This document shows, in pieces, positions 4,113 to 61,848 of a stretch of 64,000 nucleotides of DNA. Within the stretch, counting starts at the first letter, position 1, and each line of letters opens with the position of its first letter. Under the pieces are notes generated by a model that was given only the letters and a program-made list of their open reading frames with translations, made no database searches and was not told the DNA's origin. Made by a program: the position numbers and the translations under genes. Origin of the DNA: an uncultured Candidatus Saccharibacteria bacterium (GTDB lineage Bacteria; Patescibacteriota; Doudnabacteria; UBA920); assembly GCA_964594755.1 (NCBI GenBank), contig CAZQMO010000004.1:4311-68310 (forward strand). The letters run 5' to 3'.

Positions 4113-4290
4113 AGTTTTATTAAATAAAAGACACCATCTCGCAGAGCGAGGGTGTCTAGAGCCCCTTGACTTTGCCTGGGGCGGTACCATCTAGCAATTA
4201 ACTTAATTTTTCCGGGATTACGGCCGGGCCGGCAGGGTCTACTGGCTTATGCGTTCTTCCTGCGCCATGCCCTGCGCAGCTTAGCGGAAC
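4113..4290 (-). promoter_or_regulatory. probable T-box leader with intrinsic terminator upstream of valS
   Basis: Minus strand reads aattgctagaTGGTACCGCCcc, close to the T-box consensus AAUUAGGGUGGUACCGCGG. It is followed by hairpin agacaccctcgctctgcgagatggtgtc plus a U-run immediately 5' of the valS ATG, in a GC-rich structured leader. Confidence 0.35.
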
Positions 4291-6337: not shown

Positions 6338-6814
6338 ATGAATATTCAGCAACTCCGTCAAAAAGTTTGGCAGCATCTTTATCCAATTTGGCCTCAGATT
6401 GAACATTTCTTCTTGTTTATTCATGGTAATCGTCGTCAGCCTTATGCATTGGGTTGGCTCGCACAAGGAGAAACACTAGCCACATTAAAAACCTATCTAT
6501 CCAGAAAATGGGGCTTTGGAAATCACTTTGTTGCTTGGGAAGATAAGAATCAAGTTTTGTCTTGGCGTAAGTTGGATGGATTCGAGCATCAATATCATTT
6601 AAGGGTGTTCAGTGATGGAGAAATCCGCGGCCATTATGAATACACTCCTGAGTCTTCGGCTTTGATGCATTTTATGTCTGTGAAGAGCGAAGCCCGCACA
6701 AAAGATTTCGTAAAATTTTTGGGACCATTTCTATCTCATAAAAAAACTAGACACAGACTCCGGCCAGATTTTGTATCTCGCAAAAAAACACCAGAAGTCA
6801 CTTATCAAAACTAA
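6338..6814 (+). CDS. hypothetical protein (158 aa, W/H-rich)
   Basis: Clean ORF preceded by a tataat box, followed by terminator 6813-6835; no family recognised. Confidence 0.5.
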   Translation: MNIQQLRQKVWQHLYPIWPQIEHFFLFIHGNRRQPYALGWLAQGETLATLKTYLSRKWGFGNHFVAWEDKNQVLSWRKLDGFEHQYHLRVFSDGEIRGHYEYTPESSALMHFMSVKSEARTKDFVKFLGPFLSHKKTRHRLRPDFVSRKKTPEVTYQN

Positions 6815-6835
6815 ACCCCGCAGAACGCGGGGTTT
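6813..6835. terminator. bidirectional terminator
   Basis: aaaccccgcagaacgcggggttt between convergent genes. Confidence 0.65.
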
Positions 6836-6841
6836 AGTTAT

Positions 6842-7147
6842 TTAGAAATCAAATAATTCTCCCAAGAACGATTCTTTTTTACGTTTGTTGTGTCGGTAAT
6901 CGTCCCCATGGTGTGATGCATGCGGGCGATAGCCGTTATCCGCTGGGCGGTGATGTTCTTGAGGTTGGTGGCTTTGTTGGCCTCCGGCGATAAGCTTATC
7001 TAGCTCACCGCGATCTAGCCAAATTCCGCGGCAAGTGGGACAGTAGTCAATTTCTATCCCTTGTCGCTCCATCATGGCCAGAGGTGTTTGGTCGTTTGGG
7101 CATTGCATAGGCGCTTGGTTAATTATCTCTGCAGCCGACCTTAGCAA
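6842..7147 (-). CDS. zinc-ribbon protein (zf-TFIIB-like, pfam13453-like) with His-rich tail
   Basis: CPNDQTPL...YCPTCRGIWLDRGELDKL fits the zf-TFIIB-type ribbon pattern; C-terminus is His-rich (HHRPADNGYRPHASHHGDDYRH). Confidence 0.6.
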   Translation of the reverse strand: MLRSAAEIINQAPMQCPNDQTPLAMMERQGIEIDYCPTCRGIWLDRGELDKLIAGGQQSHQPQEHHRPADNGYRPHASHHGDDYRHNKRKKESFLGELFDF

Positions 7148-7152
7148 TAAAA

Positions 7153-7175
7153 AAGCCGGCTATGCCGGTTATAAT
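7153..7175 (-). terminator. minus-strand terminator
   Basis: Minus strand reads aaccggcatagccggcttttttatt. It lies inside the 7141-7335 ORF-track ORF, which is therefore probably spurious. Confidence 0.5.
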
Positions 7176-7365
7176 TGATGCTGAGTCTTCGGTTAAAGCG
7201 CTCAATGTTTGAGACCGCTCGCTTCTTCCTCACCAGCACCCAAGGCTCAAATATATTAGCATAAAGTTCTGCTATTTTCCATACCAAAGAAGCAATCCGA
7301 ACTACGTTCGATTCTTCTATAAACATTACCAACAAAAAATCGCCACTGGCGTGACGATCTTTTGT

Positions 7366-7402
7366 TGGTAGGCATCGTCTGAACGGTTGGAAAGCTTATT
7401 TG
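7366..7402 (+). repeat. 37-nt direct repeat, copy 1 (upstream of membrane-protein gene 7469)
   Basis: tggtaggcatcgtctgaacggttggaaagcttatttg; copy 2 at 7920-7956 differs at one position. Confidence 0.8.
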
Positions 7403-7468
7403 TTCTTAGTTAGGCAAATTTAGGGTATAATATAGTTAAAGTTAATTATTAAAAATTAATATGAATTT

Positions 7469-7855
7469 ATGGAAGTCAATTCATCTGGTCCAAAAGCAGA
7501 CCTCAACTCTTATCAGAAAAGCTTAAATAGTTTTGGAATAGCTAGTCTCTGGAATACATGCTTTAGTTTAACCATCGCTCTTACTTTATGTGTTTATGGT
7601 ACAGGAATTTACTTGAATGAAAGTACTGATCTTGATAACACTTTTAAATTAGTCTTAAGCATAATACAAATAGCCTCTTACATTGGATTAGTTATAGTGT
7701 TGGCATATTATGCTTACAGATTTTCAGGAAGAAAAATTTTATTACTAAATGGTTTATTTGGGGTTTTATCTGGATGGATATTCATGCCAGTGATAGGACT
7801 TATAATTATATATTCCTTTAAAAGGAAAATTATGAGAGAAAGTAAAATACTCTAA
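7469..7855 (+). CDS. small polytopic membrane protein, hypothetical (very AT-rich)
   Basis: 3-4 predicted TM helices; tataat box about 35 nt upstream; terminator follows. Confidence 0.55.
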   Translation: MEVNSSGPKADLNSYQKSLNSFGIASLWNTCFSLTIALTLCVYGTGIYLNESTDLDNTFKLVLSIIQIASYIGLVIVLAYYAYRFSGRKILLLNGLFGVLSGWIFMPVIGLIIIYSFKRKIMRESKIL

Positions 7856-7875
7856 TTATAATGCGCATATGAAAT

Positions 7876-7902
7876 AAAACACCGCCGTTAAGCGGTGTTT
7901 TT
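7876..7902 (+). terminator. rho-independent terminator
   Basis: aaaacaccgccgttaagcggtgttttt. Confidence 0.75.
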
Positions 7903-7919
7903 AATCTATAAATTGAGCG

Positions 7920-7956
7920 TGGTAGGCATCGTCTGAACGGTTGGAAAACTTATTTG
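7920..7956 (+). repeat. 37-nt direct repeat, copy 2 (upstream of membrane-protein gene 8079)
   Basis: tggtaggcatcgtctgaacggttggaaaacttatttg. Confidence 0.8.
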
Positions 7957-8078
7957 GCTTTGGTAAGGGAGTTATATAGGTGCTTAATTCAAGCGGGTAT
8001 CCATTGAGGGTTGAAAACTCCTTGATGGCTTGAGTAAACCAAGTCTAGTATAATATACTTAGCAATTAATATAAGACT

Positions 8079-9461
8079 ATGGACAACGAACAACTACCCA
8101 ATACTAACGAGATCTCTAGCACGAGTAATCCTACTCAGTATGCATCGCGATTTGAGGTTACTGTAAAAATACTTAAATGGTTTTTTCCTCCGAGTATTGT
8201 AGTGGCTTTTTTAGTAGGATTAGGTTCGGCAGGATTTTGTTTATTGTTCTGTTCGCCAACAACGATTGAGAATATCTTTATTTGGTTAGGAATAGGTTCA
8301 GTCGTTGCCGCGTTAATATATGTTCCTATTGTTAGTGCGAAAAAGATTTCTCAAGCAACTACGAAAAAAAGTTTAGTTCTCGAGACGTTGGGCTTAATAG
8401 TAATAGGTTATGCAATTATCTTTGGAATTACTCTTGGTTGGCTAGGTATTAGCAGTCATCAGCCTGAAGGCTGGAAACCATCATTAAACGAAAGAATGTT
8501 GGGTTGGATTCAGGTTACTGTGGGTGAAATTCAGGATTCCAAAAGAGATGCAATTAACCAAGCAAAATTTAATAATGACTCATTTGAATTTGTACCCGCT
8601 TCCAGTGAATTAACTCTCATAAACAGCCACGATGCTGTACTATCTACCACAGGAACGATAAGTGGTTTAGATAAGTTAAATGGTTTAGAAGGTAACTCTC
8701 AGTACATTGTGGTAATTTCTGAAGTTGCTGTTGGAGATATGGCTGCTCAAGGAGATGTGGTAAAGCGATTGAAAGGCGAACATGGAGTATTGGGTGAAGA
8801 GCTTTGGACAAGTACCTTGAATCTGGGTGCAGGTGATTCACAACAAATAACAATCTCAGCTGCTTTACCTAAAGAATTCGCTCAAGTGATAAAGGATAAA
8901 CCTGATACTACTTTTAAAGTAAAGTTAGAGCTATTAGCCGAATCTGCTTACACTTACCAAAAATTCAATTTTACTTCTATATGGTCTCAGGAAACATCAA
9001 TTGTCCCAAAATATGCCGGCCAATTTTTAAAAGATCGTCAACATGAGATTAATTTCCGACTTCCTGATGCTGCTGTAAAATTTACAAAAATTGATGAAAA
9101 AGGCAATTTTGTGACAGAATCAGACAATCAAGTAAATTTTACAGTCACTACCAATCCAAAGATGAGTTTGTGCTGTGAAGCTCCTGAACTTAAGGTAACT
9201 TCTACTTGGGGTAATTCCCAGTCGCTAGAAGACTATTTGGAAACGATATCGTGGAAGGGAGAGATTGTTAGCAAAAAAGTTGGTAAGTCAGGAACTGTAG
9301 CAATAGTAGAAGCTAATCCTACAATAGCTAGTCCTTACAAAGCAATTATATACAAAAGATTTGACGAATTTAGAGTTTATCAGTTAACTGAAAAAAATTC
9401 TGGCTTAGATGAACTATACAATTTGTATTTAGAATCATATAAAAAGTTTGATACATTTTAA
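8079..9461 (+). CDS. membrane protein with 4 N-terminal TM helices and ~330-aa extracytoplasmic domain, hypothetical
   Basis: tagtataatatact promoter-like box upstream; TM block 35-125 then a soluble domain; no family recognised. Confidence 0.6.
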   Translation: MDNEQLPNTNEISSTSNPTQYASRFEVTVKILKWFFPPSIVVAFLVGLGSAGFCLLFCSPTTIENIFIWLGIGSVVAALIYVPIVSAKKISQATTKKSLVLETLGLIVIGYAIIFGITLGWLGISSHQPEGWKPSLNERMLGWIQVTVGEIQDSKRDAINQAKFNNDSFEFVPASSELTLINSHDAVLSTTGTISGLDKLNGLEGNSQYIVVISEVAVGDMAAQGDVVKRLKGEHGVLGEELWTSTLNLGAGDSQQITISAALPKEFAQVIKDKPDTTFKVKLELLAESAYTYQKFNFTSIWSQETSIVPKYAGQFLKDRQHEINFRLPDAAVKFTKIDEKGNFVTESDNQVNFTVTTNPKMSLCCEAPELKVTSTWGNSQSLEDYLETISWKGEIVSKKVGKSGTVAIVEANPTIASPYKAIIYKRFDEFRVYQLTEKNSGLDELYNLYLESYKKFDTF

Positions 9462-9708: not shown

Positions 9709-9717
9709 TCGTCCAAA

Positions 9718-9883
9718 TTTGGCTCACTTGCTTGTGGCCGCTCCTCGCCCTTGGCTCGACCGGCTCGCTCGCTTGTTCACCAACTTTCTCCTCTCAAATT
9801 TTCACTTAACTTACACCCTCGCTCCGAGCTTCCTTGTTACACTGCGTCAGCTCGGCTCGGGTTTAGCCCAAGTGAAAATTTGG
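9718..9883. repeat. GC-rich IR-bounded structured element (diverged member of the dispersed family)
   Basis: A 12-bp perfect IR (aaattttcactt at 9796-9807, aagtgaaaattt at 9870-9881) bounds a GC-rich loop. The flanking GC-rich segment to the left contains ggctcgctcgcttgttcacc, resembling the B/C module ggctcactcgttgctcgct. The ORF-track ORFs 9719-10041 here are probably noncoding. Confidence 0.4.
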
Positions 9884-10096
9884 GTAAATGCTTTTCTTCA
9901 AATAACTCTCGCATTTTAACAGATTTAGGGAGTTTTGGCAAGGCTGTTGGTGCAATAAATTTATTCTGGTACATTAAATGTAATGGTAAAGCAAAGTTTT
10001 GGTTTAAGCGGCAAGCCAGTGATTCGTTCCTATCAACTTAAGCGCCGCCAAGTCATCCCGAAATCAAAAACTCAAATTCAATCTTGGCGGTTATTG

Positions 10097-11988: not shown

Positions 11989-12108
11989 AAGTATGTCATT
12001 CCTGGGCCCACCGCAGGTAGGAACCGGGAATCCACTAGACAGTCAAGATAATTTAATAGATCCCCGGTTCTCCTCGCTTTGCTCGGGGACCAGGGGTGAC
12101 CAAATAAT

Positions 12109-13320
12109 ATGAACAATCCCTTTGAATCAGCCAAGCGGCAACTCCAGGCAGCGGCCGACGTAGCCAACTTGGATAAAAACAAAATTGACGAATTGATGCA
12201 TCCAGACCGGTATATTGAGGTTTCAATTCCAGTACAAATGGATGACGGGTCTCAAAAAATTTTTGAAGGTTTCCGCAGTCAGCATAACAATGCCCGAGGT
12301 CCATACAAAGGGGGTATTCGTTACCACCAAGATGTAAATTTAGACGAGGTGCGCGCTTTAAGCTTTTGGATGACTTTTAAGAATGCAGTCATTGACGTTC
12401 CTTTTGGCGGAGGCAAGGGCGGCATTATTGTAAACCCTAAGGAATTATCTGAAGTTGAGTTAGAAAAACTCTCCCGCGGCTATATGCAAAAAATGTTTCG
12501 CAATTTTGGCCCGGAAATAGATGTGCCTGCTCCAGACGTAAACACTAACGGCCAGATTATGGGCTGGATGCGTAACGAGTACGAAAACCTGACCGGCACT
12601 GTCGCTCCAGGGGTGATTACTGGCAAAGCGATAGAAGATGGTGGCAGCGAGGGTCGCACCGAAGCAACTGGGTATGGCGGGGGATATGTTTTACGCGAAG
12701 CTTTGAAGGCAGGGTTAGTATCGGATGATCGCAAGACTATCGCTGTGCAAGGGTTTGGTAATGTAGCGACTTACTTGGCCGAGTATGTTAAAGAGCATGG
12801 CTTTAAGGTGGTTGCTTTATCCGACAGCAAGGGCGGAGTGTATAACGAAGCTGGTATTGATATCTCTGCGGCCGAAGCACATAAAAAGGCCACAGGCTCT
12901 TTGAATGGCTTGGAAGGTGCTACTTCTATCACCAACGAGCAGTTATTAGAACTAGATGTCGAAGTTTTGGTACCAGCGGCATTAGAAAATGTTATTACTA
13001 AAGTTAATGCTGCAAAGATTAAAGCTAAGCTGATTTTGGAAATGGCCAATGGCCCAACGACACCTGAGGCCGACCAGATTTTGCAAGATAATGGCGTTGT
13101 GGTAATTCCAGATATCTTGGCCAATAGCGGTGGCGTCTGCGTGAGTTATTACGAATGGTATCAGAATATGCATAATGAAAAGTGGGCCAAGCAGGATGTT
13201 TTGGCCAAGCTTGATGCGCAGATTACCAAGGCATTTGCAGATGTTCTCGCAGGCTCAAAACAGCATGCTACTTCACTTAGAACAGCAGCCTATATAGTCG
13301 CCGCCGAGCGAATTATCTGA
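12109..13320 (+). CDS. gdhA: NAD(P)-dependent glutamate dehydrogenase
   Basis: GGGKGG catalytic motif (PFGGGKGGI), GFGNVATY Rossmann motif, ~400 aa ELFV dehydrogenase. Confidence 0.85.
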   Translation: MNNPFESAKRQLQAAADVANLDKNKIDELMHPDRYIEVSIPVQMDDGSQKIFEGFRSQHNNARGPYKGGIRYHQDVNLDEVRALSFWMTFKNAVIDVPFGGGKGGIIVNPKELSEVELEKLSRGYMQKMFRNFGPEIDVPAPDVNTNGQIMGWMRNEYENLTGTVAPGVITGKAIEDGGSEGRTEATGYGGGYVLREALKAGLVSDDRKTIAVQGFGNVATYLAEYVKEHGFKVVALSDSKGGVYNEAGIDISAAEAHKKATGSLNGLEGATSITNEQLLELDVEVLVPAALENVITKVNAAKIKAKLILEMANGPTTPEADQILQDNGVVVIPDILANSGGVCVSYYEWYQNMHNEKWAKQDVLAKLDAQITKAFADVLAGSKQHATSLRTAAYIVAAERII

Positions 13321-13344
13321 GAAATGTAAGAACAAAGCCAGTCG

Positions 13345-13728
13345 TTAGACTGGCTTTTGAGTTGCGTCAATTGCTTGAACAATGAAGCGTATAGCAATGG
13401 TTGCTTTCTGTTGCTCTCTCTGTTCCAGGCAAACAAATTTTTGGCCAGCAAGAATAGCATACGGTATTTGACTGTCTAAGCGGTAAACGCTGGTGCAGCC
13501 AGGTTGCCTGATTTGCATCGTGGACTGCGTGCCACCTTGCATACACCATTCAAAGTAGTAGCGACTGGTTCTAAAGTGCACAAAGTCGCATTCGCCAAAC
13601 TGGCCGGGGTAATATTTAACAAGATCAGGATTAGCTTCAATGTCCTCCGCGATCTTATCAAGGGTGGTTATTTGCGGGCATTCCTTGCTCATAACACTAC
13701 CTCCCTGCAATTTTTTCCAGTATAGCAT
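13345..13728 (-). CDS. Cys-rich hypothetical protein (GC-elevated), likely starts at internal MSKECPQ
   Basis: Six Cys (CPQ, GECDF, EWCMQGG, PGCTS, FVCLE); no family recognised; local GC is higher than the neighbours. Confidence 0.4.
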   Translation of the reverse strand: MLYWKKLQGGSVMSKECPQITTLDKIAEDIEANPDLVKYYPGQFGECDFVHFRTSRYYFEWCMQGGTQSTMQIRQPGCTSVYRLDSQIPYAILAGQKFVCLEQREQQKATIAIRFIVQAIDATQKPV

Positions 13729-13742
13729 GTTAAAATTATTAT

Positions 13743-14657
13743 ATGTATGACGTCATAATTATCGGTGCTGGCCCAGCAGGAATGACTGCGGCCATCTACA
13801 CAGCACGAAAAAAATTAAATACTTTGGTTCTAGCTAAAGAAGCTGGTGGTCAAATGGTATGGAGCAGTGATGTCGAGAACTATACTGGTTTCAATATGAT
13901 TAGTGGTGCTGAGTTAACTTTGAAATTTCAGGAACATTTGTCTACGCTTAAAGAAGATTTAGAAGTTAAGATAGGTGTGGAGGTTGCCAGAATTGAAAAG
14001 AATATCACTAGCTTTGAAGTAAGTGACAAGCAAGGCAATCAGTATTTTGGTAAGACTGTAATTATTGCTTCTGGGAAAAACCCACGTCATTTGAACATTC
14101 CTGGTGAGAGTGAATTCTATGGTCATGGCGTGGCTACCTGCGCAACCTGCGACGCGCCTCTTTACAAAGGAAAAGATGTCGCAGTGATAGGTGGTGGAAA
14201 TTCTGCTTTGGACGCAGTTTTGGCCTTGTCCAAAGTGGCCAAAACTGTGGCGGTTGTGAATATTAATCAAGCTTTATCTGGTGATTCAATTGTCAAAGAA
14301 AAAATTGAACATTCCGGTAATGTAAAAATATATAATAACACCAAAACTTTGTCTGTTTTAGGAGAGAAGGCCGTAACAGGTTTGGAGATTCATCAATTTG
14401 GTAAAGACAAGGAAATATTGACAGTGTCTGGAGTGTTTGTGGAAATCGGCTATGAGCCAAGCATTGCTTTTGATCAACTTACTAAAAAGAATGAAAAAAA
14501 CGAAATTGTCGTGGACGGCAACTTGCAGACTAGCGTACCCGGGATTTTTGCCGCCGGCGACATCAATGACGCCTGGGGCGAACAGATTATCATTGCAGCC
14601 GGGGAAGGCGCTAAGGCCGCCATGGCCGTGAGTAACTACTTGAACAGACTGAAGTAG
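13743..14657 (+). CDS. thioredoxin reductase-like flavoprotein disulfide reductase (second paralog)
   Basis: GAGPAG, CATCDAPLY (CxxC), GGGNSALDA, and a C-terminal GD motif GDINDAWGEQ. Confidence 0.75.
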   Translation: MYDVIIIGAGPAGMTAAIYTARKKLNTLVLAKEAGGQMVWSSDVENYTGFNMISGAELTLKFQEHLSTLKEDLEVKIGVEVARIEKNITSFEVSDKQGNQYFGKTVIIASGKNPRHLNIPGESEFYGHGVATCATCDAPLYKGKDVAVIGGGNSALDAVLALSKVAKTVAVVNINQALSGDSIVKEKIEHSGNVKIYNNTKTLSVLGEKAVTGLEIHQFGKDKEILTVSGVFVEIGYEPSIAFDQLTKKNEKNEIVVDGNLQTSVPGIFAAGDINDAWGEQIIIAAGEGAKAAMAVSNYLNRLK

Positions 14658-14711
14658 GTTGTTGATGATAAGTATACAAAAAAAGCTCTGGAATGTTCCA
14701 AAGCTTTTTAA

Positions 14712-15275
14712 TTAGTTATTGACGCGTTCTACGTAAGCGCCGCCTTCGCGAGTATCTACGCGCACCACATCACCTTCTTTGATGAACATTGGCGCCTGCA
14801 CGCTCAGTCCAGTTTCAAGCTTGACTGGCTTGGTAACGTTACCACCGCTGTTACCGGTTACTCCTGGAGGAGCTTCTATGACTTTAAGATCAACTTTAAT
14901 CGGCAGTTCTATAGAAACAGGTTTGCCGTTAAATCGCAAGATGATTACTTTTAAGCCTTCGGTCAAAAATGGTTCTTGTTCGGCTGTAATCTCTTTATCA
15001 AAATCAATCGTCTCAAAAGTTTCATTATTCATGAAGTGAGTACCTTCGTCGTCAGCGTACAAAAAGTTGGCGTTTTCGCGGGTGACGTCGGCACCTTCAA
15101 CTTTTTCACCGAACTTGAAGCTGTACTCCAAAACTTTTCCAGTAATTACATTGCGAAGCTTCGCTTGCATTACCGGTTTACGCTGGGCAGTTCGCATGCG
15201 GTTAGACCAGATTACCTGGAAAGGTTCGCCGTTCATCAATACAATTGCTCCTAATTTTACGTCGTTGAGGTCCAT
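14712..15275 (-). CDS. efp: elongation factor P
   Basis: KPVMQAKLRNVITGKVLEYSFKFGEKVE with the conserved KPG-region lysine context; 187 aa. Confidence 0.85.
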   Translation of the reverse strand: MDLNDVKLGAIVLMNGEPFQVIWSNRMRTAQRKPVMQAKLRNVITGKVLEYSFKFGEKVEGADVTRENANFLYADDEGTHFMNNETFETIDFDKEITAEQEPFLTEGLKVIILRFNGKPVSIELPIKVDLKVIEAPPGVTGNSGGNVTKPVKLETGLSVQAPMFIKEGDVVRVDTREGGAYVERVNN

Positions 15276-15374
15276 ATTTTATTACTATATTCATTCTCAA
15301 ATATCTATGTCATTCCGTGAATGCGGAACTTCATTCTTTGATTTTATGATTTAGAATTTTTAATTGTAAATTAG

Positions 15375-15474
15375 CCGTCCACTTTTTCGGGGGCGCTCTC
15401 GCGGCTTATCCAGTCAAATCCGCATAGATTTGACTGGGCCGCTGGCGCTAGCTTACCCCCTCTTAAGTGGACGG
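15375..15474. repeat. GC-rich nested-hairpin element downstream of rpsR
   Basis: Outer 10-bp IR ccgtccactt / aagtggacgg; inner 11-bp IR ccagtcaaatc / gatttgactgg; GC-rich interior. Confidence 0.5.
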
Positions 15475-15493
15475 CGGGAAGTAGTAAATGCTG

Positions 15494-15739
15494 TTAAGCG
15501 GCGACGAAAGGCAATAAAGCCATGTGGCGAGCGCGCTTAAGCGCGATAGTAATCATGCGTTGGTGCTTAGGGCAAGAACCAGTGCGGTTGCGAGATAAAA
15601 TCTTCGCGTGTGGAGACATAAAACGACGCAAAGTCTGGGTATCTTTGTAGTCTACAGTGCTAATTTTATTAGCACAGAAATAGCAGACTTTTTTGACAGG
15701 AGCCGCGTCGCGGTCCCGGTTATTCTTATTGTATGGCAT
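15494..15739 (-). CDS. rpsR: 30S ribosomal protein S18
   Basis: [16 protein letters not shown]...LRRFMS...[15 protein letters not shown]...[13 protein letters not shown]. Confidence 0.85.
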
Positions 15740-15758
15740 AGTTATTTAGAGAATAGGA

Positions 15759-16244
15759 TTAAAATGGAATATCATCTACGTTGATGTCTTCACCTTGTTG
15801 AATTGTTGGAAGTTCTTCAGCAGGTTCAGGTTGACTCACTGCAGAGCTAGCCATTGCGCCAGCTCCAGCTCCGGCAGCAGCATAACCTGCACCAGTAGAG
15901 GAGCCGTCACCGCGGCCACCATCTAACATAATCATGTTGTCGGCGATAATTTCGGTGCGGTAATTCTTCTTACCATCTTGACCATCCCAGCTGCGGGTCT
16001 GTAAGCGGCCTTCGATGTAAACGCGCTGACCTTTCTTAAGGTATTGTGCAGCGATTTCACCAAGCTTACGCCAGAGCACCACATTGTGGTATTCAACGTT
16101 TTCAACTTTTTGACCAGATTGCTGGTTAGTGTAGACGAAGTTAGTAGCAAGACCAAGCTGACAGACGCTAGCGCCAGAAGGAGTGGTCTTGAGTTCTGGA
16201 TCACGGGTTAGTCTCCCAATGATCATAGCTTTGTTTAAATCCAT
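15759..16244 (-). CDS. ssb: single-stranded DNA-binding protein
   Basis: OB-fold N-terminus MDLNKAMIIGRLTRDPELKTTPSGASVCQLGLATN, Gly/Ala-rich linker, acidic tail DDIPF. Confidence 0.85.
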   Translation of the reverse strand: MDLNKAMIIGRLTRDPELKTTPSGASVCQLGLATNFVYTNQQSGQKVENVEYHNVVLWRKLGEIAAQYLKKGQRVYIEGRLQTRSWDGQDGKKNYRTEIIADNMIMLDGGRGDGSSTGAGYAAAGAGAGAMASSAVSQPEPAEELPTIQQGEDINVDDIPF

Positions 16245-16254
16245 ATTCGTAGTT

Positions 16255-16435
16255 CCGAAGTTGTGGCCGCTGATTTTCAGTCTGGGGGACCCAGACTTCT
16301 AATCAGCCCTTGTCCGATAGCTGTGTTATTTTCCTCGCTGCCCACTCGGCGTACGTTTCAGTACGCGCCGTGTTCAGCTCGGAAAATGCCTTGCTCTCGG
16401 CCAAGCCAAAACTTCTTGATTAATGGTTTAAGTTT
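16255..16435. repeat. GC-rich structured spacer between rpsF and ssb (multi-hairpin element)
   Basis: Hairpins ctgatt-ttc-agtctggg-gga-cccagact-tct-aatcag and gcgtac-gtttca-gtacgc; outer IR gaagttgtggc / gccaaaacttc. About 180 nt at roughly 55% GC inside an AT-rich operon. Confidence 0.45.
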
Positions 16436-16443
16436 AAAATCTT

Positions 16444-16914
16444 TTAAGCGACTTCTTCGTTGAGTGCTTTTTCGATTTCTTCTTCCAACTTTTCGTTGGT
16501 AACCGGTGCAGCCTTTTTAGCAGGCTTAGCTTCTTTTGCTGGAGCAGTTTCTGCAGCGTCTTCGGTTGGGATGCGACGCTTCAATTTAGACTGAGCAACG
16601 CGGTCCTTTTCTAAGCGTTCTAGGTGTTCATCAATGTTCACGATGATGTGGCGGATGATGCTAGCTTTTTGGGTGCGGATTTTCGCTTCCAAAGGTGCTA
16701 AACCCTTACCTTCCATATCAAAATTGATGACCCCGTAATGACCGTTACGAGTCTTACCGATTTGGTAAGCTAATTTCTTTTTGCCCAATTGTTCGTGGAC
16801 AACGTTCTGACCGCCAAAATCAGCAACCATTTGCTCGATACCGGCGCTCGCGGAAGGGACTTGGTCGTCCGATACGCTAGAGGCGAGAATGTACATAAGT
16901 TCATATCTCGGCAT
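16444..16914 (-). CDS. rpsF: 30S ribosomal protein S6 (with C-terminal Lys/Ala/Glu-rich extension)
   Basis: MPRYELMYIL...GHYGVINFDMEG S6 core; gene order rpsF-ssb-rpsR. Confidence 0.8.
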   Translation of the reverse strand: MPRYELMYILASSVSDDQVPSASAGIEQMVADFGGQNVVHEQLGKKKLAYQIGKTRNGHYGVINFDMEGKGLAPLEAKIRTQKASIIRHIIVNIDEHLERLEKDRVAQSKLKRRIPTEDAAETAPAKEAKPAKKAAPVTNEKLEEEIEKALNEEVA

Positions 16915-17103
16915 AAGGAATTCTCCTTATCTCTACAATCCAATTATTATAGAGAACATTTAATTGTGTACAATCTTGGCCTTGGCTTAGGATTGCCTGG
17001 TTCTATATTAGCAGAGCTAAATAAAAAAAGAACCAAGAAAAACCTAAATTTGAACCAAAATTTCCTTAATTCTACCTAAAATCTTAACTTTTGGCAAGTA
17101 CTA

Positions 17104-17127
17104 AAAAAGACCCATTTGGGTCTTTAG
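17104..17127 (-). terminator. minus-strand terminator
   Basis: Minus strand reads aaagacccaaatgggtcttttttag. Confidence 0.6.
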
Positions 17128-17130
17128 ACA

Positions 17131-17270
17131 TTGAAGAGGAAGTGGACCACGTCGCCGTCGCGTCAGACTTGCCTTGCCCCGTTCGCTACTGGCTAAAGCC
17201 AATAGCTCACTAAGCTCGGAAGTCTTCCTTTATCCAAATCACTTAACCCTTTAGGTCCAAGTGATTTGGA
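17131..17270. repeat. GC-rich element in ychF 3' region, diverged family member
   Basis: ccccgttcgctactggct and gctcactaagctcgg resemble the ccgctactcgctggc / cggctcactcgttgctcg modules of A/B/C; terminal 11-bp IR ccaaatcactt / aagtgatttgg. Confidence 0.4.
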
Positions 17271-17287
17271 TTTTATTTAAGATGTAT

Positions 17288-18364
17288 TTATACGTTGAAT
17301 AGGAAATGAACGACATCACCATCTTGAACTATATACTCTTTACCTTCAGTGCGGAGCCAACCTTTGGCACGCGCGTTGGCATACGAACCAGCTTCTAAAA
17401 GCTTGTCCCAAGCAATGGTCTCTGCGCGGATGAAGCCGTGTTCAAAATCTGTGTGAATTACCCCGGCAGCCTGCGGCGCTTTGGTGCCAGCCGGGCAAGT
17501 CCAAGCCTTGCTTTCTTTTGGACCGGCAGTAATGAATGTGATCAATCCCAAAGTTTTGTACGCAGAAGTAATAATTCGATCCAAACCACTTTCTTTCATA
17601 CCGAGTTCTTCCATGTATTGCGCGCGGTCTGCGTCTTCCAGTTCAGCGAGCTCGCTTTCTAGCTTGGCATCGACTACAATCGCGTTTTCCGGCAGGGAAG
17701 CAGGCACATTCTCGAACTGATGTGTGTTCATATCAAAGGTAGAATTGAACGCGTACAAAAATGGCTTAGTAGTAAGTAGCTGGACTTCCTTGGCTGCTTC
17801 TTTTTCTTCTTCATTCAAAGTTACTGTGTTGGCCATTTTGCCATCTTCTAAAGTAGCTTTGTAGCGTTCTAAAACTCCTTGGCGAATTTTAGCCAAGCGA
17901 TCACCGGATTTTACTTGCTTGGCATTTGATTCAATACGTTTGTCTACGTTAGCTAAATCAGCCAATTGTAGTTCGATGGCAATTGTTGCCATATCGCGGT
18001 CAGCATCAACGCTGCCAGCGACATGAATAATATCATTGTTGTTAAACACTCGAGTTACTTCCATAATGGCGTCTACTTCGCGGATGTGAGACAAGAACTG
18101 ATTGCCCAAGCCTTCGCCTTTATGGGCGCCGGACACTAGGCCAGCGATATCCACAAACTCTATAGTAGTAGGAACAATCTTTTCGCTTTTTTCCTGAGCT
18201 GCCAGTTTAGCCAAGCGTTCGTCGGGCACGGCAACAACACCGACGTTTGGGTCGATTGTGGCAAAAGGATAGTTCGCAGCTTCAACCTGCGATTTAGTGA
18301 TGGCGTTAAATAAAGTGGACTTACCAACGTTTGGCAGCCCAACGATTCCGATTTGAAAGCTCAT
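17288..18364 (-). CDS. ychF: ribosome-binding ATPase YchF (Obg-family GTPase)
   Basis: GIVGLPNVGKSTLFNA G1 motif, DIAGLV, NNDIIHV, C-terminal TGS domain. Confidence 0.85.
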   Translation of the reverse strand: MSFQIGIVGLPNVGKSTLFNAITKSQVEAANYPFATIDPNVGVVAVPDERLAKLAAQEKSEKIVPTTIEFVDIAGLVSGAHKGEGLGNQFLSHIREVDAIMEVTRVFNNNDIIHVAGSVDADRDMATIAIELQLADLANVDKRIESNAKQVKSGDRLAKIRQGVLERYKATLEDGKMANTVTLNEEEKEAAKEVQLLTTKPFLYAFNSTFDMNTHQFENVPASLPENAIVVDAKLESELAELEDADRAQYMEELGMKESGLDRIITSAYKTLGLITFITAGPKESKAWTCPAGTKAPQAAGVIHTDFEHGFIRAETIAWDKLLEAGSYANARAKGWLRTEGKEYIVQDGDVVHFLFNV

Positions 18365-18452
18365 AACTAAGGTATTGTGCCTGAAAAGGGGCGACTTGTC
18401 TAATAAGTATGGTATTCTAAAGATGACAGAATAAGCTATAGGAGGTTACTTT

Positions 18453-18554
18453 GTGAAGAAATTTTGGCGTACACGCCATCAGCCCACAACTTTTTATCGA
18501 ACTGCGCCTCGTTGTTTTGTGCCTGTCTGGATGCGTCGATACAAACGCCGTTGT
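18453..18554 (+). CDS. candidate 33-aa highly basic small peptide (GTG start)
   Basis: taggaggt SD 7 nt before the GTG; VKKFWRTRHQPTTFYRTAPRCFVPVWMRRYKRRC. Not in the ORF track (<60 aa); identity unknown. Confidence 0.25.
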
Positions 18555-18702
18555 TGAGTTATTATTGAAGCGTCCTCATTACATTCTGGGGGCGCTTTAA
18601 TTTTCAGTAGTTGACAGAAATTAAGAAAATACTTATACTGACAATTACAGTCTTGCGGTTCCTATGGATAGGCTGAATACAATTTGAAGGAGAACACTTA
18701 GT

Positions 18703-18993
18703 ATGCAATCTGCTACTGCTCGAATGGTCTCGGGCAAAGATAACTCGATCACTCTCTCTCACCTAACGCCGAAAGAGCGCGCTCCGTTTTTCAAAGAAAT
18801 CCGCGCTAATTGCTGCCCGGAACTCAAAGATGCTGACGTTCAACAAGCGTTCGAAAAGGTCTTCAATGCCCAGAACTTTACGATTACCCCGCAAGGCGAA
18901 GGTCGTGTGACGTTCTCGGCTCGGCTCGACTTACCCCGGCTCAATGATCCAGTTTTGGTAACGTCCCGTGACTACCTGAAGCAGTTGTTTTAA
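18703..18993 (+). CDS. hypothetical protein (96 aa)
   Basis: TTGACA-17-TATACT promoter at 18611-18639, gaaggag SD, strong terminator at 19000-19040. Confidence 0.5.
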   Translation: MQSATARMVSGKDNSITLSHLTPKERAPFFKEIRANCCPELKDADVQQAFEKVFNAQNFTITPQGEGRVTFSARLDLPRLNDPVLVTSRDYLKQLF

Positions 18994-18999
18994 ACCCCA

Positions 19000-19040
19000 G
19001 CGGACAAGGAATTCCATCCTTGTCCGCTTTCGTTTTTTTA
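19000..19040 (+). terminator. rho-independent terminator
   Basis: gcggacaagg-aattccatc-cttgtccgc followed by tttcgttttttt. Confidence 0.75.
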
Positions 19041-19081
19041 AGATTACTATTTGATATAATATAAGAAAGTCTGGAGGGACA

Positions 19082-19426
19082 ATGACACAAATTAGTTCAG
19101 CACCTTATATCTATGTAAAAGAGGTTTGGTCGGAGCATTCGACTGAATTCTATGAACAGGAAGCGCATTGGTTACTGACTAACTTGGCGGGAAGATTGCG
19201 TAAACAATCTTTTCGTACAAGTCAGGATTTAGTTTTAAGCGTTGTGGAATATCTATTCTCCACAGATTGGTTTCGTTCGGTGCGCAGGGGTCGTAGCGAA
19301 GCAATTATTTTGGAGCGCAAACGCGGACAAATCTTTTTTGTGATCAGGATGCAGGACATCCCTGCAATTAGAACTTGGGCTAATCGTCGGCATCAAAACC
19401 GGCGACACCTAAGGAGAAGCGTGTGA
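19082..19426 (+). CDS. hypothetical protein (114 aa, basic C-terminus)
   Basis: tataat box then ggaggg SD; no family recognised. Confidence 0.5.
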   Translation: MTQISSAPYIYVKEVWSEHSTEFYEQEAHWLLTNLAGRLRKQSFRTSQDLVLSVVEYLFSTDWFRSVRRGRSEAIILERKRGQIFFVIRMQDIPAIRTWANRRHQNRRHLRRSV

Positions 19427-19468
19427 AAACGCGCTTTTTTATCCCAAAATTTTTGGTACACTTATAAC

Positions 19469-20263
19469 ATGAAAATTACAAACCTCAACAAAATTGGAAA
19501 GAAAAAGTTAATAGTTTTTGATTTGGACGATACTTTGGCAGAATCCAAAATTCCCATGGATCAGGAAATGGCAGGGTTGGTGGAAGAACTTATTGCCAAC
19601 AAAAAAATGGCTGTCATTGGTGGGGGAAAGTATGAGCTATTTAAATGGCAATTTTTAGCTTCGTTAAAAACCAGAAGTAAGATTCTTGAAAATTTGTTTT
19701 TATTTCCGACTTCAGGTAACGCATTTTATCTATATAGATCTGGTTGGAAAAAAGTTTATGCGCACAATTTAAGTGCTGCTGAAAAAAAACAGATTCGCCA
19801 AGCATTTGAAGAGGTCTTTAAAGATATCAGCTACAAACATCCTAAAAAAGTTTACGGCGAAATTTTAGAGGACCGTATCACACAGATGAGCTTTTCTCCG
19901 TTAGGACAAGACATTACCACAGTTCTGGGACGCAAAGGTGTACAAAAGAAAAAAGAGTGGCGAGCTAAATATGATCACGTTCGGTTAGATATAGCCAAGC
20001 GTTTAGCTAAGTATTTACCAAATTTAGAAGTTCGATTTGGTGGTATTACCACTATTGATATCACCATGAAAGGCCGAGATAAGGCGTATGGTGTAAGACA
20101 AATGGAAAAGTACTTGAAGGTTAAGGTTAAAGATATGGTGTATATTGGAGATGCAATTTTCCCAGGTGGTAATGACTATTCAGTTTTAAAGACAGGCATT
20201 GATTATATAAAAGTTACAGGTCCTGAAGACACTAAGAAAATAATCAGAAAAATTTTAGAATAA
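19469..20263 (+). CDS. HAD-superfamily hydrolase (IIB-like)
   Basis: FDLDDTL motif I with the catalytic Asp pair, K...GGGK, C-terminal GDAIFPGGNDY motif IV. Confidence 0.65.
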   Translation: MKITNLNKIGKKKLIVFDLDDTLAESKIPMDQEMAGLVEELIANKKMAVIGGGKYELFKWQFLASLKTRSKILENLFLFPTSGNAFYLYRSGWKKVYAHNLSAAEKKQIRQAFEEVFKDISYKHPKKVYGEILEDRITQMSFSPLGQDITTVLGRKGVQKKKEWRAKYDHVRLDIAKRLAKYLPNLEVRFGGITTIDITMKGRDKAYGVRQMEKYLKVKVKDMVYIGDAIFPGGNDYSVLKTGIDYIKVTGPEDTKKIIRKILE

Positions 20264-21777: not shown

Positions 21778-21975
21778 ATGGCGACTAACAAGTGCCCGCA
21801 GTGCGGCAAAGAGGATGTGCAGACCTACACGAATGGTTTGCTGGTATCTCACAAGCGCGATGATTTTAGCGACTGCCCTGGGTCGCTGAATCACCCGAAG
21901 GACCTTCCATTAAAGGAAGACGAAAGGGCTCCAGCCCGTTGGGTTCCGGGATTACATGCCCAGTTTAACCCTTAA
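21778..21975 (+). CDS. hypothetical small protein with CxxC pair (65 aa)
   Basis: gtaggaggttat SD immediately upstream; CPQCGK...SDCPGS; translationally coupled to the upstream ORF. Confidence 0.45.
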   Translation: MATNKCPQCGKEDVQTYTNGLLVSHKRDDFSDCPGSLNHPKDLPLKEDERAPARWVPGLHAQFNP

Positions 21976-21981
21976 CAAAAA

Positions 21982-22022
21982 AGCGGCCGAACGTTTAACG
22001 TTCGGACCGCTCTTTATTTTTT
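21982..22022. terminator. bidirectional terminator
   Basis: gcggccgaacg-ttta-acgttcggaccgc followed by a T-run. Confidence 0.75.
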
Positions 22023-37588: not shown

Positions 37589-37669
37589 AAATTTGTGAGC
37601 TTGGCCAATTTCTTTGTCGCCAGCTCCGCTACTCGCTGGCTTCGCGAACTTGGCACAATTCACAAATTT
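37589..37669. repeat. GC-rich IR-bounded element, copy A (minimal form) in grpE-dnaK spacer
   Basis: aaatttgtgagcTTGGCCAATTTCTTTGTCGCCAGCTCCGCTACTCGCTGGCTTCGCGAACTTGGCacaattcacaaattt. Terminal IR aaatttgtga..ttggcc / ttggc..tcacaaattt. The core is 36/37 nt identical to copies B and C. Confidence 0.8.
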
Positions 37670-41649: not shown

Positions 41650-41652
41650 TTT

Positions 41653-41680
41653 AAACCCCGCCGGAGGCGGGGTTTTTATA
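41653..41680 (+). terminator. rho-independent terminator
   Basis: aaccccgcc-gga-ggcggggtt followed by ttttata. Confidence 0.75.
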
Positions 41681-41775
41681 AGGCCGGCGGGTCCTGTCGC
41701 TGTCCACCTCCATCCATCCTCCTTCGTGCGGGTGGATGGAGGTCCGCCGGACTGCGCCACCCGCCGGTTAAAAGA
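41681..41775. repeat. GC-rich nested-palindrome element downstream of dnaJ
   Basis: 11-bp stem acctccatcca / tggatggaggt nested inside ccggcgggtcc / ggtccgccgg; ~70% GC. Produces spurious ORFs on both strands (41587-41821). Confidence 0.5.
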
Positions 41776-53872: not shown

Positions 53873-53987
53873 ATTTTTGGCCAATTTCTTTGTCGCCAGC
53901 TCCGCTACTCGTTCACCGTTCCGCCAGCTGGCGGATTCACTACGGCTCACTCGTTGCTCGCTAGCTTCGCGAACTTGGCTCAAAAAT
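53873..53987. repeat. GC-rich IR-bounded element, copy B (long form) in der-LCP spacer
   Basis: atttttGGCCAATTTCTTTGTCGCCAGCTCCGCTACTCG-[ttcaccgttccgccagctggcggattcactacggctcactcgttgctcg]-CTAGCTTCGCGAACTTGGctcaaaaat. Terminal IR atttttggccaa / ttggctcaaaaat. Same plus-strand orientation as copy A although the flanking genes are on the minus strand. Confidence 0.8.
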
Positions 53988-56310: not shown

Positions 56311-56429
56311 TGATTCCTGGATTTGCCCAATTTCTTTGTCGCCAGCTCCGCTACTCGTTCACCGTAGCTTTCACTACGGCTCACTCGTTGCTCGCTGGCT
56401 CCTCGAACTTGAACTAACCAGAAATCATC
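56311..56429. repeat. GC-rich IR-bounded element, copy C (intermediate form) in lepB-hisZ-like spacer
   Basis: tgattcctggatTTGCCCAATTTCTTTGTCGCCAGCTCCGCTACTCG-[ttcaccgtagctttcactacggctcactcgttgctcg]-CTGGCTCCTCGAACTTGaactaaccagaaatcatc. Terminal IR gattcctgg / ccagaaatc. The internal module equals B's minus the ccgccagctggcgg palindrome. Confidence 0.8.
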
Positions 56430-61762: not shown

Positions 61763-61782
61763 ATTATAAAAACATGATGAGA

Positions 61783-61848
61783 TTCGCTGGCTTCCGCCTC
61801 GGCTCGTCTAGGCGAGATGGGCCGCGAACTTGAGCAATTTTTGAATTG
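61783..61848. repeat. partial copy (3' half) of the A/B/C element with a further nested insertion
   Basis: cgctggcttc-[cgcctcggctcgtctaggcgagatgggc]-cgcgaacttgagcaatttttgaattg aligns to A's ctcgctggcttcgcgaacttggcacaattcacaaattt. Confidence 0.55.

Follow-up and report, generated by a model that had tools for sequence, protein, structure and literature searches.

The stretch analyzed here, a 64,000-nt window on contig CAZQMO010000004.1 of an uncultured Candidatus Saccharibacteria bacterium (assembly GCA_964594755.1), carries the ribosomal-protein operon rpsF-ssb-rpsR, in which a structured element fills the spacer between rpsF and ssb (rpsF|ssb). This spacer is probably occupied by one copy of a lineage-specific family of structured repeats similar to repetitive extragenic palindromic (REP) elements and miniature inverted-repeat transposable elements (MITEs); the copy would be carried on the operon mRNA and would not be a protein-specific operator, and the hairpin distal to rpsR would be a different, single-locus element. 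The family, referred to below as the GA-loop hairpin family, consists of structured, non-coding repeats dispersed over unrelated loci, and orthologous sites occur both with and without a copy. Coordinates are positions of the whole window (WIN), and L-numbers denote related loci. The comparison set, S6 homologues plus 80 syntenic loci that were extracted from genome assemblies, places the window among the Doudnabacteria-like Patescibacteria (candidate phyla radiation, CPR).

The rpsF|ssb element begins 27 nt after the rpsF stop codon and finishes 12 nt ahead of the ssb ATG. It folds as a closed multi-helix RNA at -77.3 kcal/mol (z = -7.9), and none of 200 dinucleotide shuffles folded as well. 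Its parts are as follows:

16253-16416, minus strand: complete 164-nt repeat element in which P1 (outer stem), P2 (long core hairpin) and P3 (second hairpin) form a three-way junction, from the RNA fold and covariation
16404-16415, minus strand: 5' arm of P1, GAAGUU.UGGCU, from the fold; covaries with the 3' arm
16257-16268, minus strand: 3' arm of P1, GGCCA.AACUUC, from the fold; covaries with the 5' arm
16307-16407, minus strand: P2, the core hairpin of ~100 nt and the family-defining module, from covariance-model matches
16269-16307, minus strand: P3, an optional side hairpin whose pairing is kept while its sequence differs between orthologues

The internal loops of P2 are conserved and purine-rich (GAGAGCAAGGCAUUUU ... 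AAAAUAACACAGCUAUCGG), and P3 is absent from L009 and from the other copies in the window. An earlier note on this DNA had described a spacer of roughly 180 nt and ~55% GC at 16255-16435. These positions do lie within a structured, GC-enriched spacer of 199 nt, but their GC content was overstated: it is 50.8% over 16255-16435 and 53.7% over 16253-16416 (51-54%), rising to 57% over the core, against 42.1% for the window.

The three-way-junction element is common to five orthologous rpsF|ssb spacers (WIN, L003, L004, L009 and L016), and the distance from P1 to the ssb ATG is 12 nt in all five. A MAFFT alignment of the rpsF|ssb set had 93% of its cells paired, compared with 32-41% when the pairing partners were slid. 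Compensatory change was found in 28 of 55 pairs, while the slid controls gave 2-7 pairs with changes on both sides. The set behind this count consists of the five orthologues and L016c, a sequence from the rpsR|efp spacer of L016. Genome-specific direct repeats of 8-11 nt flank the rpsF|ssb copies of WIN, L003, L004, L009, L016 and L137 (e.g. AAACTCAAAAC / AAACTAAAAC in L004), the downstream repeat copy being the ssb translation-initiation region. These repeats may be the remains of an old target duplication, or may stem from independent insertions that occurred repeatedly at the same site.

Covariance models provide the evidence that the element is dispersed. Model R1 was built from the same six rpsF|ssb-type sequences, and R2 is a second model. 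The P2 core at 16307-16407 reaches 102 bits (E 1e-24) with R1 and 90.8 bits (E 5e-23) with R2. Together the two models identify four copies in the window, at unrelated gene pairs, with E values of 7e-24, 5e-23, 6e-18 and 7e-9. Besides the rpsF|ssb copy, these are:

37598-37661, minus strand: short variant between grpE and dnaK, antisense to both genes, from the covariance model
53874-53986, minus strand: copy between a lytR-family gene and der, sense, from the covariance model
56320-56419, minus strand: copy between signal peptidase I (lepB) and hisS, antisense, from the covariance model

The matches of R1 beyond its training set include 56320-56419, 53874-53986, L002 and L072. With R1 and R2, at least 17 further copies were found in Doudnabacteria-like relatives, in both orientations to the genes. 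L111 carries one in each of four consecutive spacers of the lepB-hisS-hit-rpsU-yqeY cluster, and L137 has copies at ychF|rpsF (the rpsF 5' region), rpsF|ssb, ssb|rpsR and gdh|trxB. Additional copies lie in ssb|rpsR of L002 (where the whole unit is inverted) and L004, and in rpsR|efp of L016. The core also occurs at hisS|hit, rpsU|yqeY, gdh|trxB and nusB-adjacent sites, again in both orientations, and the cores at L111 5027-5128 and L118 1568-1669 are ~97% identical at non-homologous loci. The unit thus described is 65-170 nt long. Its outer stem varies, its core hairpin is conserved and contains purine-rich internal loops of the tandem G.A type, and a side hairpin is sometimes present.

The family is detectable by covariance model only. 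Each of two conserved core motifs was found once in the window, and a motif search with AAGTGGACG, allowing one mismatch, returned 11 matches where 9.9 were expected, so this arm sequence is no dispersed signature. A metagenome pattern scan returned 52 loci, of which seven hold true copies (L128 duplicates L004) and the rest are chance matches. Two weaker sites were noted in the window: 9717-9785 has a weak R2 score (E 0.67), and 61785-61840 (minus strand) starts with CAAGTTCGCGG, as the family 5' end does, and may be a truncated family relic. Both fall among further GC-rich intergenic hairpins without a family assignment, which lie at 4191-4280, 9717-9900, 21974-22018, 41680-41770 and 61780-61840.

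Comparison of orthologous spacers, a check that the earlier note had proposed, separated filled from empty sites. The gene order ychF-rpsF-ssb-rpsR-efp is conserved across the comparison set. The rpsF|ssb spacer measures 148-330 nt in WIN, L003, L004, L009 and L016, and it is an AT-rich 10-38 nt in L006-L008, L010-L015, L017-L020, L023, L025, L027 and L041-L042. In most relatives the orthologous spacers are 10-40 nt long, AT-rich and unstructured. The ssb|rpsR spacer is empty in the window (19 nt) and filled in L002, L003, L004 and L137. On the tree, the filled rpsF|ssb state is patchy: it is present in the WIN/L003/L004/L009 clade but not in L006-L008 inside that clade, and it appears separately in L016. 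This patchy presence implies at least two gains, or a gain followed by losses. The expectation in the earlier note of a normally tight operon was not borne out, since the rpsF|ssb spacer is 60 nt or longer in 54 of 81 related loci and below 40 nt in 22 of 81.

A second repeat family was observed at 11989-12108, between a thioredoxin-reductase-like gene and the glutamate dehydrogenase gene, with ends GTCATTCCTGGG...CCAGGGATGAC or GTCATTCCTGGG...CCAGGGGTGAC. Its relatives occupy rpsF|ssb in L002 and ssb|rpsR in both L003 and L137, and the L002 and L003 sequences are 91% identical despite their different spacers. The same spacer is occupied by different families in different relatives. A mini GTCATTCC hairpin lies at 15305-15335. 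In L002, the closest assembled relative, a run of N at ~2400-2508 falls exactly in the rpsF|ssb spacer and across the ssb start; the assembly was likely broken by repeat content, and because of this run the L002 rpsF|ssb spacer gives no presence/absence call for the GA-loop family.

The presence of multiple copies at unrelated loci, together with filled and empty orthologous sites, argues for a repeat insertion and not for an S6:S18 operator. The rpsF|ssb copy would be transcribed with the operon, because only 12 nt separate it from the ssb start with no promoter-like site between them, no U tract follows it, and the essential genes ssb and rpsR lie downstream. A scan of the spacer (16245-16443) found no terminator-like or promoter-like site on the minus strand. 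On the mRNA, the insert would form a closed three-way junction in which P1 brings the rpsF stop and the ssb start close to each other. The retention of every helix through compensatory change suggests selection for a compact insert. The insert would at most act as a barrier or processing point in mRNA decay, a role that is plausible by analogy with REP and Correia elements.

Several points weigh against this explanation. Neither a transposase nor any other mobilising gene was found among the 68 window open reading frames with Pfam. The copies have no clear terminal inverted repeats apart from the stems and no unambiguous target-site duplication. The outer stem P1 differs between copies, some of which have a partly common AGAACTTT...AAAGTTCT end; five copies have TA..TA flanks, which are ambiguous since TA is self-complementary, and one copy has CA..CA. 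The copies also diverge to a fair degree, as would be expected of old or selected elements more than of a recent burst. The family alignment of 21 copies has 94.6% of cells paired, against 32-39% with partners slid, and compensatory change in 23 of 31 pairs, but it was fitted to the covariance model, so the pairing is inflated. Finally, strong long-term compensatory evolution and the conserved unpaired purines suggest a function beyond selfish spread.

The alternative that survives best, which we regard as possible but doubtful, is that the hairpins are RNA-level punctuation, domesticated as processing sites (RNase III, RNase J) or 3' ends that tune the stability of the rpsF, ssb, rpsR and efp messages, or bound by protein through tandem G.A (kink-turn-like) loops, with spread being secondary. 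The clade-wide pattern of spacer structure is consistent with it. At the three spacer positions of the cluster in 80 relatives, 163 spacers measure 60-260 nt, and 117 of these reach z < -3 (median -4.0). Spacer lengths are bimodal, either below 40 nt or about 100 nt. Other genomes have their own hairpin families in all three spacers, and the GC-rich elements of the window are a local version of this clade-wide habit. Also in its favor are the 22 G.U against 5 A.C pairs in the stems on one strand, the strong compensatory evolution, the conserved unpaired GA motifs and an RNase J encoded in the window. On the other hand, many relatives have no hairpin at all in the same spacers, and the purine-rich (GA) strand is antisense to the flanking genes in at least half of the copies (the window copies at 37.6 kb and 56.3 kb, the L002 copy and each of the four L111 copies).

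Two observations describe the hairpins of other relatives. The sister group L006-L020 has a common rpsR-distal hairpin with a variable apex and with A-rich and U-rich flanks. The distant relatives L021-L081 carry genome-specific, AT-rich families of long hairpins in all three spacers (in L031 with ends CTCTACTAAATAC...GTATTTAGTAGA), often trailed by a small palindrome, AAAATTNTTAACAANAATTTT, just ahead of the next start codon.

The behavior of the strands bears on a further alternative, in which the family would function or spread in the form of single-stranded DNA coupled to replication, either through mobilization by an HUH enzyme (IS200/IS605 or RAYT-like) or through selection by the template strand forming the hairpin. 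Sequence conservation and the better pairing both fall on the GA strand. Some copies have this strand in sense and others in antisense orientation to the genes, and yet all copies of a contig lie on one strand whatever the gene direction: WIN 4/4, L111 4/4, L137 4/4, L004 2/2 and L016 2/2. Under random orientation, this coherence has a chance of about 1 in 2048, although clustered copies are possibly non-independent. The GA strand is the C-rich strand in ~16 of 19 independent copies, and in each of the four window copies its fold as DNA is more stable than that of the complement (e.g. -23.4 vs -16.1 kcal/mol). The strand coherence hints at a link with replication direction rather than transcription, from short loci and noisy skew. 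The lack of a clear target duplication would also agree with single-stranded movement. Against this, the window encodes no HUH transposase; replication direction is only noisily approximated by GC skew over 5-20 kb, and three single-copy contigs do not fit; and the better-folding strand is on the inferred leading-strand template, opposite to the IS608 rule. We regard the single-stranded DNA explanation as unlikely.

In a further reading, which we consider similarly improbable, the family would not simply be a MITE: it would be a structured element that is strand-specific and oriented with replication, amounting to a long REP-like system in CPR bacteria. A dedicated protein would read its conserved purine-rich loops on one strand, either as RNA or as single-stranded DNA, and, together with the genome-specific hairpin families of relatives, the family would form a general punctuation of nearly every gene boundary.

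That the two elements are intrinsic terminators or attenuators dividing transcription units is very unlikely. Their very stable stems directly after stop codons, the promoter-like sites after the rpsR-distal hairpin and the A-rich and U-rich flanks in the L006-L020 group invite this explanation. An intrinsic terminator combines a GC-rich stem with an immediate U tract, and neither window element has such a tract (their tails are GGAACUACGAAU and UAAUUUACAAUU, and the scan calls neither), whereas the genome does have canonical terminators with short GC stems and T runs (17103-17125, 41650-41680). In addition, half of the family copies are antisense to transcription, and downstream of the element neither ssb nor rpsR has its own promoter, and both need read-through. 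Terminators were rejected because of this need and the missing U tracts.

The weakest alternative, an operon-specific cis-regulatory RNA (an S6:S18 operator, as the earlier note had proposed, or an ssb translational operator), is largely refuted and highly improbable: conservation of position in five orthologous operons, with covariation and with the ssb start codon at a fixed 12 nt, speaks for it, but the core also lies at grpE|dnaK, der|lytR, lepB|hisS and other pairs in both orientations, most orthologous operons lack the element, and no feature of the S6S18CBM motif is present. An S6:S18 leader was likewise rejected, as the element lies 3' of rpsF and not in its 5' untranslated region. Neither the element nor the stretch that follows it (GGAACUACGAAUAUG) contains a Shine-Dalgarno sequence. 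The covariance search for a ribosomal-protein leader, also proposed in the earlier note, returned no Rfam leader match: with Rfam 15, only tRNAs were found in the window at the gathering score, nothing relevant at E <= 10 in 15200-17350, and nothing relevant at E <= 0.1 in nine related loci.

A REP/MITE-like repeat best accounts for the rpsF|ssb element; the structure after rpsR is of another kind. The genes around the two structures are:

17288-18364, minus strand: ychF, the upstream flank of the operon
16444-16914, minus strand: rpsF (ribosomal protein S6), the first operon gene; open reading frame, Pfam Ribosomal_S6 8e-20
15759-16244, minus strand: ssb; open reading frame, Pfam SSB 7.5e-38
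15494-15739, minus strand: rpsR (S18); open reading frame, Pfam Ribosomal_S18
14712-15275, minus strand: efp, the next gene downstream of the operon; Pfam EFP domains

The spacers of the window are 199 nt at rpsF|ssb (16245-16443), 19 nt at ssb|rpsR and 218 nt at rpsR|efp. The last of these contains the following features:

15374-15475, minus strand: nested hairpin of 102 nt, 18 nt after the rpsR stop, with an 11-bp outer stem, a GGGGG/CCCCC stem and purine-rich loops
15410-15437, minus strand: inner apical hairpin, an inverted repeat with perfect arms of 11-12 bp (15410-15421 / 15426-15437)
15341-15370, minus strand: promoter-like site TTTACA-18-TAAAAT directly after the nested hairpin, a consensus match only
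15284-15313, minus strand: promoter-like site ATGACA-18-TATAGT, ending 9 nt ahead of the efp ATG, a consensus match only

The nested hairpin folds at -62 kcal/mol (z -9.0 against dinucleotide shuffles) and has 59% GC; its outer arms, 15374-15384 / 15465-15475, are GCCGTCCACTT / AAGTGGACGGC. It is 99% identical in the same spacer of L004, L128 and L137. L003 retains the outer stems and loops, one pair having changed in a compensatory manner, but carries a different, unrelated apical hairpin; only two distinct sequences of it are known. The nested hairpin has no R2 match at E <= 10 with filters off, and searches with blastn-short and the model found no relative of it in the window or in ~1 Mb of related DNA, save in the same spacer of L003, L004, L128 and L137. 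It shares just a general style with the dispersed family and is a separate single-locus element.

The basic description in the earlier note, an rpsF-ssb-rpsR operon with two structured elements, agrees with the Pfam-supported genes and with z scores of -7.9 and -9.0; the inverted repeats it named were found in place, and the nested double inverted repeat after rpsR was confirmed. Its suggestion that both elements are insertions of the dispersed repeat family, sharing one hairpin grammar, divided between them. It holds for the rpsF|ssb element, whose core is a covariance-model member and which has model copies in both orientations and filled and empty spacers, and it is unproven for the single-locus hairpin after rpsR.

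With moderate confidence, we assign the nested hairpin as a stem-loop that closes the rpsF-ssb-rpsR transcript at its 3' end and precedes a promoter belonging to efp; its position is observed, and its role is deduced from that position. Nearly all relatives have a long hairpin of some kind at rpsR|efp (47 of 62 with z < -3). The window hairpin would be a stabilising or weakly terminating stem-loop, lacking a U tract, at the transcript 3' end. This same lack of a U tract weighs against the assignment, as does the fact that the promoter and terminator calls around the hairpin are consensus matches. Elsewhere in the clade, a conserved two-hairpin motif was seen upstream of efp in the rpsR|efp spacer (L002 3399-3558, L016 4487-4613, and also L047, L056, L057 and L015). 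It consists of a GGAGGGG...CCCCUCC stem followed by CCUCCCCUUUCC, with alternative pairing or Pro-Pro coding possible. This motif is absent from the window, has no Rfam match and is possibly an efp leader.

Upstream of the operon, two features would mark the start of its transcription unit:

~17103-17125, minus strand: ychF terminator, a canonical hairpin with a T run, read from the sequence
17069-17097, minus strand: promoter-like site for rpsF, TTGCCA-17-TAGAAT, downstream of the ychF terminator, a consensus match only

The rpsF promoter-like sequence is conserved in L137. Within the ychF|rpsF spacer (17140-17287), a hairpin of GA-loop style lies at ~17150-17215 on the minus strand, without a match to model R2. 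A perfect 14-bp hairpin with a T run on the plus strand lies at 17237-17278; its RybB-like Rfam match reaches 25.6 bits, below the 40-bit threshold, and a plus-strand small RNA is possible there.

The surrounding region also shows signs of recent exchange. From 13000 to 19500, identity to L003 and L004 is mosaic, with tracts of 96-100% DNA identity within a background of 75-85%. The tracts run from the rpsR 3' end to the efp 5' end with L004, and cover the 3' part of efp and the next gene with L003. This mosaic points to recent recombination between the lineages of the window, L003 and L004, and would blur the history of the repeats. In L135, a close relative (S6 88% identical), two large serine recombinases (6471-8120 and 17934-19451) flank this region, beside a shortened ychF, which suggests an integrated element at that place. 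In an exact-protein look-up, the window S18 had no record and the window S6 was matched on one 2.3-kb contig only.

CPR genomes are small, and the general view is that they hold little mobile DNA. Here, a dense, covarying repeat family is inserted in essential, highly expressed operons (rpsF-ssb-rpsR, grpE-dnaK and lepB-hisS), and long hairpins at gene boundaries are the rule across the clade. RNA-motif screens can take such repeats for riboswitches or for leaders of ribosomal-protein genes. The repeats also break assemblies, as the gap lying exactly there in L002 illustrates, and are usable as strain-level markers. If strand coherence does reflect replication-coupled biology, it would offer a handle on DNA transactions in unculturable organisms. 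No description of palindromic REP- or MITE-like repeats in Patescibacteria/CPR was found in the searchable literature; within that literature, the GA-loop hairpin family is previously undescribed, and the REP/MITE-like kind to which it is compared is already known.

Among known systems, the S6:S18 motif lies in the rpsF 5' untranslated region directly upstream of the start, as an irregular hairpin that carries the Shine-Dalgarno sequence on its 3' side and, in a bulge located 2-3 nt before that sequence, a CCR (Matelska et al. 2013, PMC3854524). Both it and the window element are structured, covarying RNAs in the same operon. The motif is single-copy and upstream of rpsF, whereas the window element is downstream, multi-copy and without a Shine-Dalgarno stem or CCR bulge. 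TIGR arrays, considered because of the GA-type loops of the window family, consist of tandem 36-nt or stem-loop units beside a Tas gene (the Tas/Nop-domain systems of CPR; PMC12045711). They were rejected, as the family copies are single and dispersed and no Nop-domain or Tas protein is encoded in the window.

The Correia/NEMIS elements of Neisseria and similar MITEs (ERIC, RUP, BOX) differ in that the outermost stem of the window family is variable, its conserved part is internal and it shows no unambiguous target duplication. To our knowledge, Correia elements lack covariation as extensive as that seen here, and we know of no cognate transposase for the window family. The likeness lies in their size (100-160 bp), in the long hairpins they form when transcribed in operons, in presence/absence between strains, in modular or short variants and in the possible TA flanks of several window-family copies. 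Like a MITE, the family is small, non-coding and multi-copy, with presence/absence at orthologous sites.

REP elements are imperfect palindromes of 20-40 nt with a conserved 5' tetranucleotide of the GTAG type. In Enterobacteria and Pseudomonas, they and the bacterial interspersed mosaic elements (BIMEs) they form are associated with, and mobilised by, RAYT, an HUH Y1 transposase. They are co-transcribed, non-terminating and known to stabilise upstream mRNA. The window family departs from REP/BIME in its 65-170 nt units, which are sometimes three-way junctions, in having no GTAG-type tetranucleotide or foot, in that no RAYT or other Y1 transposase was found in the window, and in its occurrence in Patescibacteria. 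It resembles them as a set of non-coding imperfect palindromes found in many intergenic spacers, including those of operons, in both orientations and singly or in mosaic with other modules, with compensatory change keeping the structure on one preferred strand.

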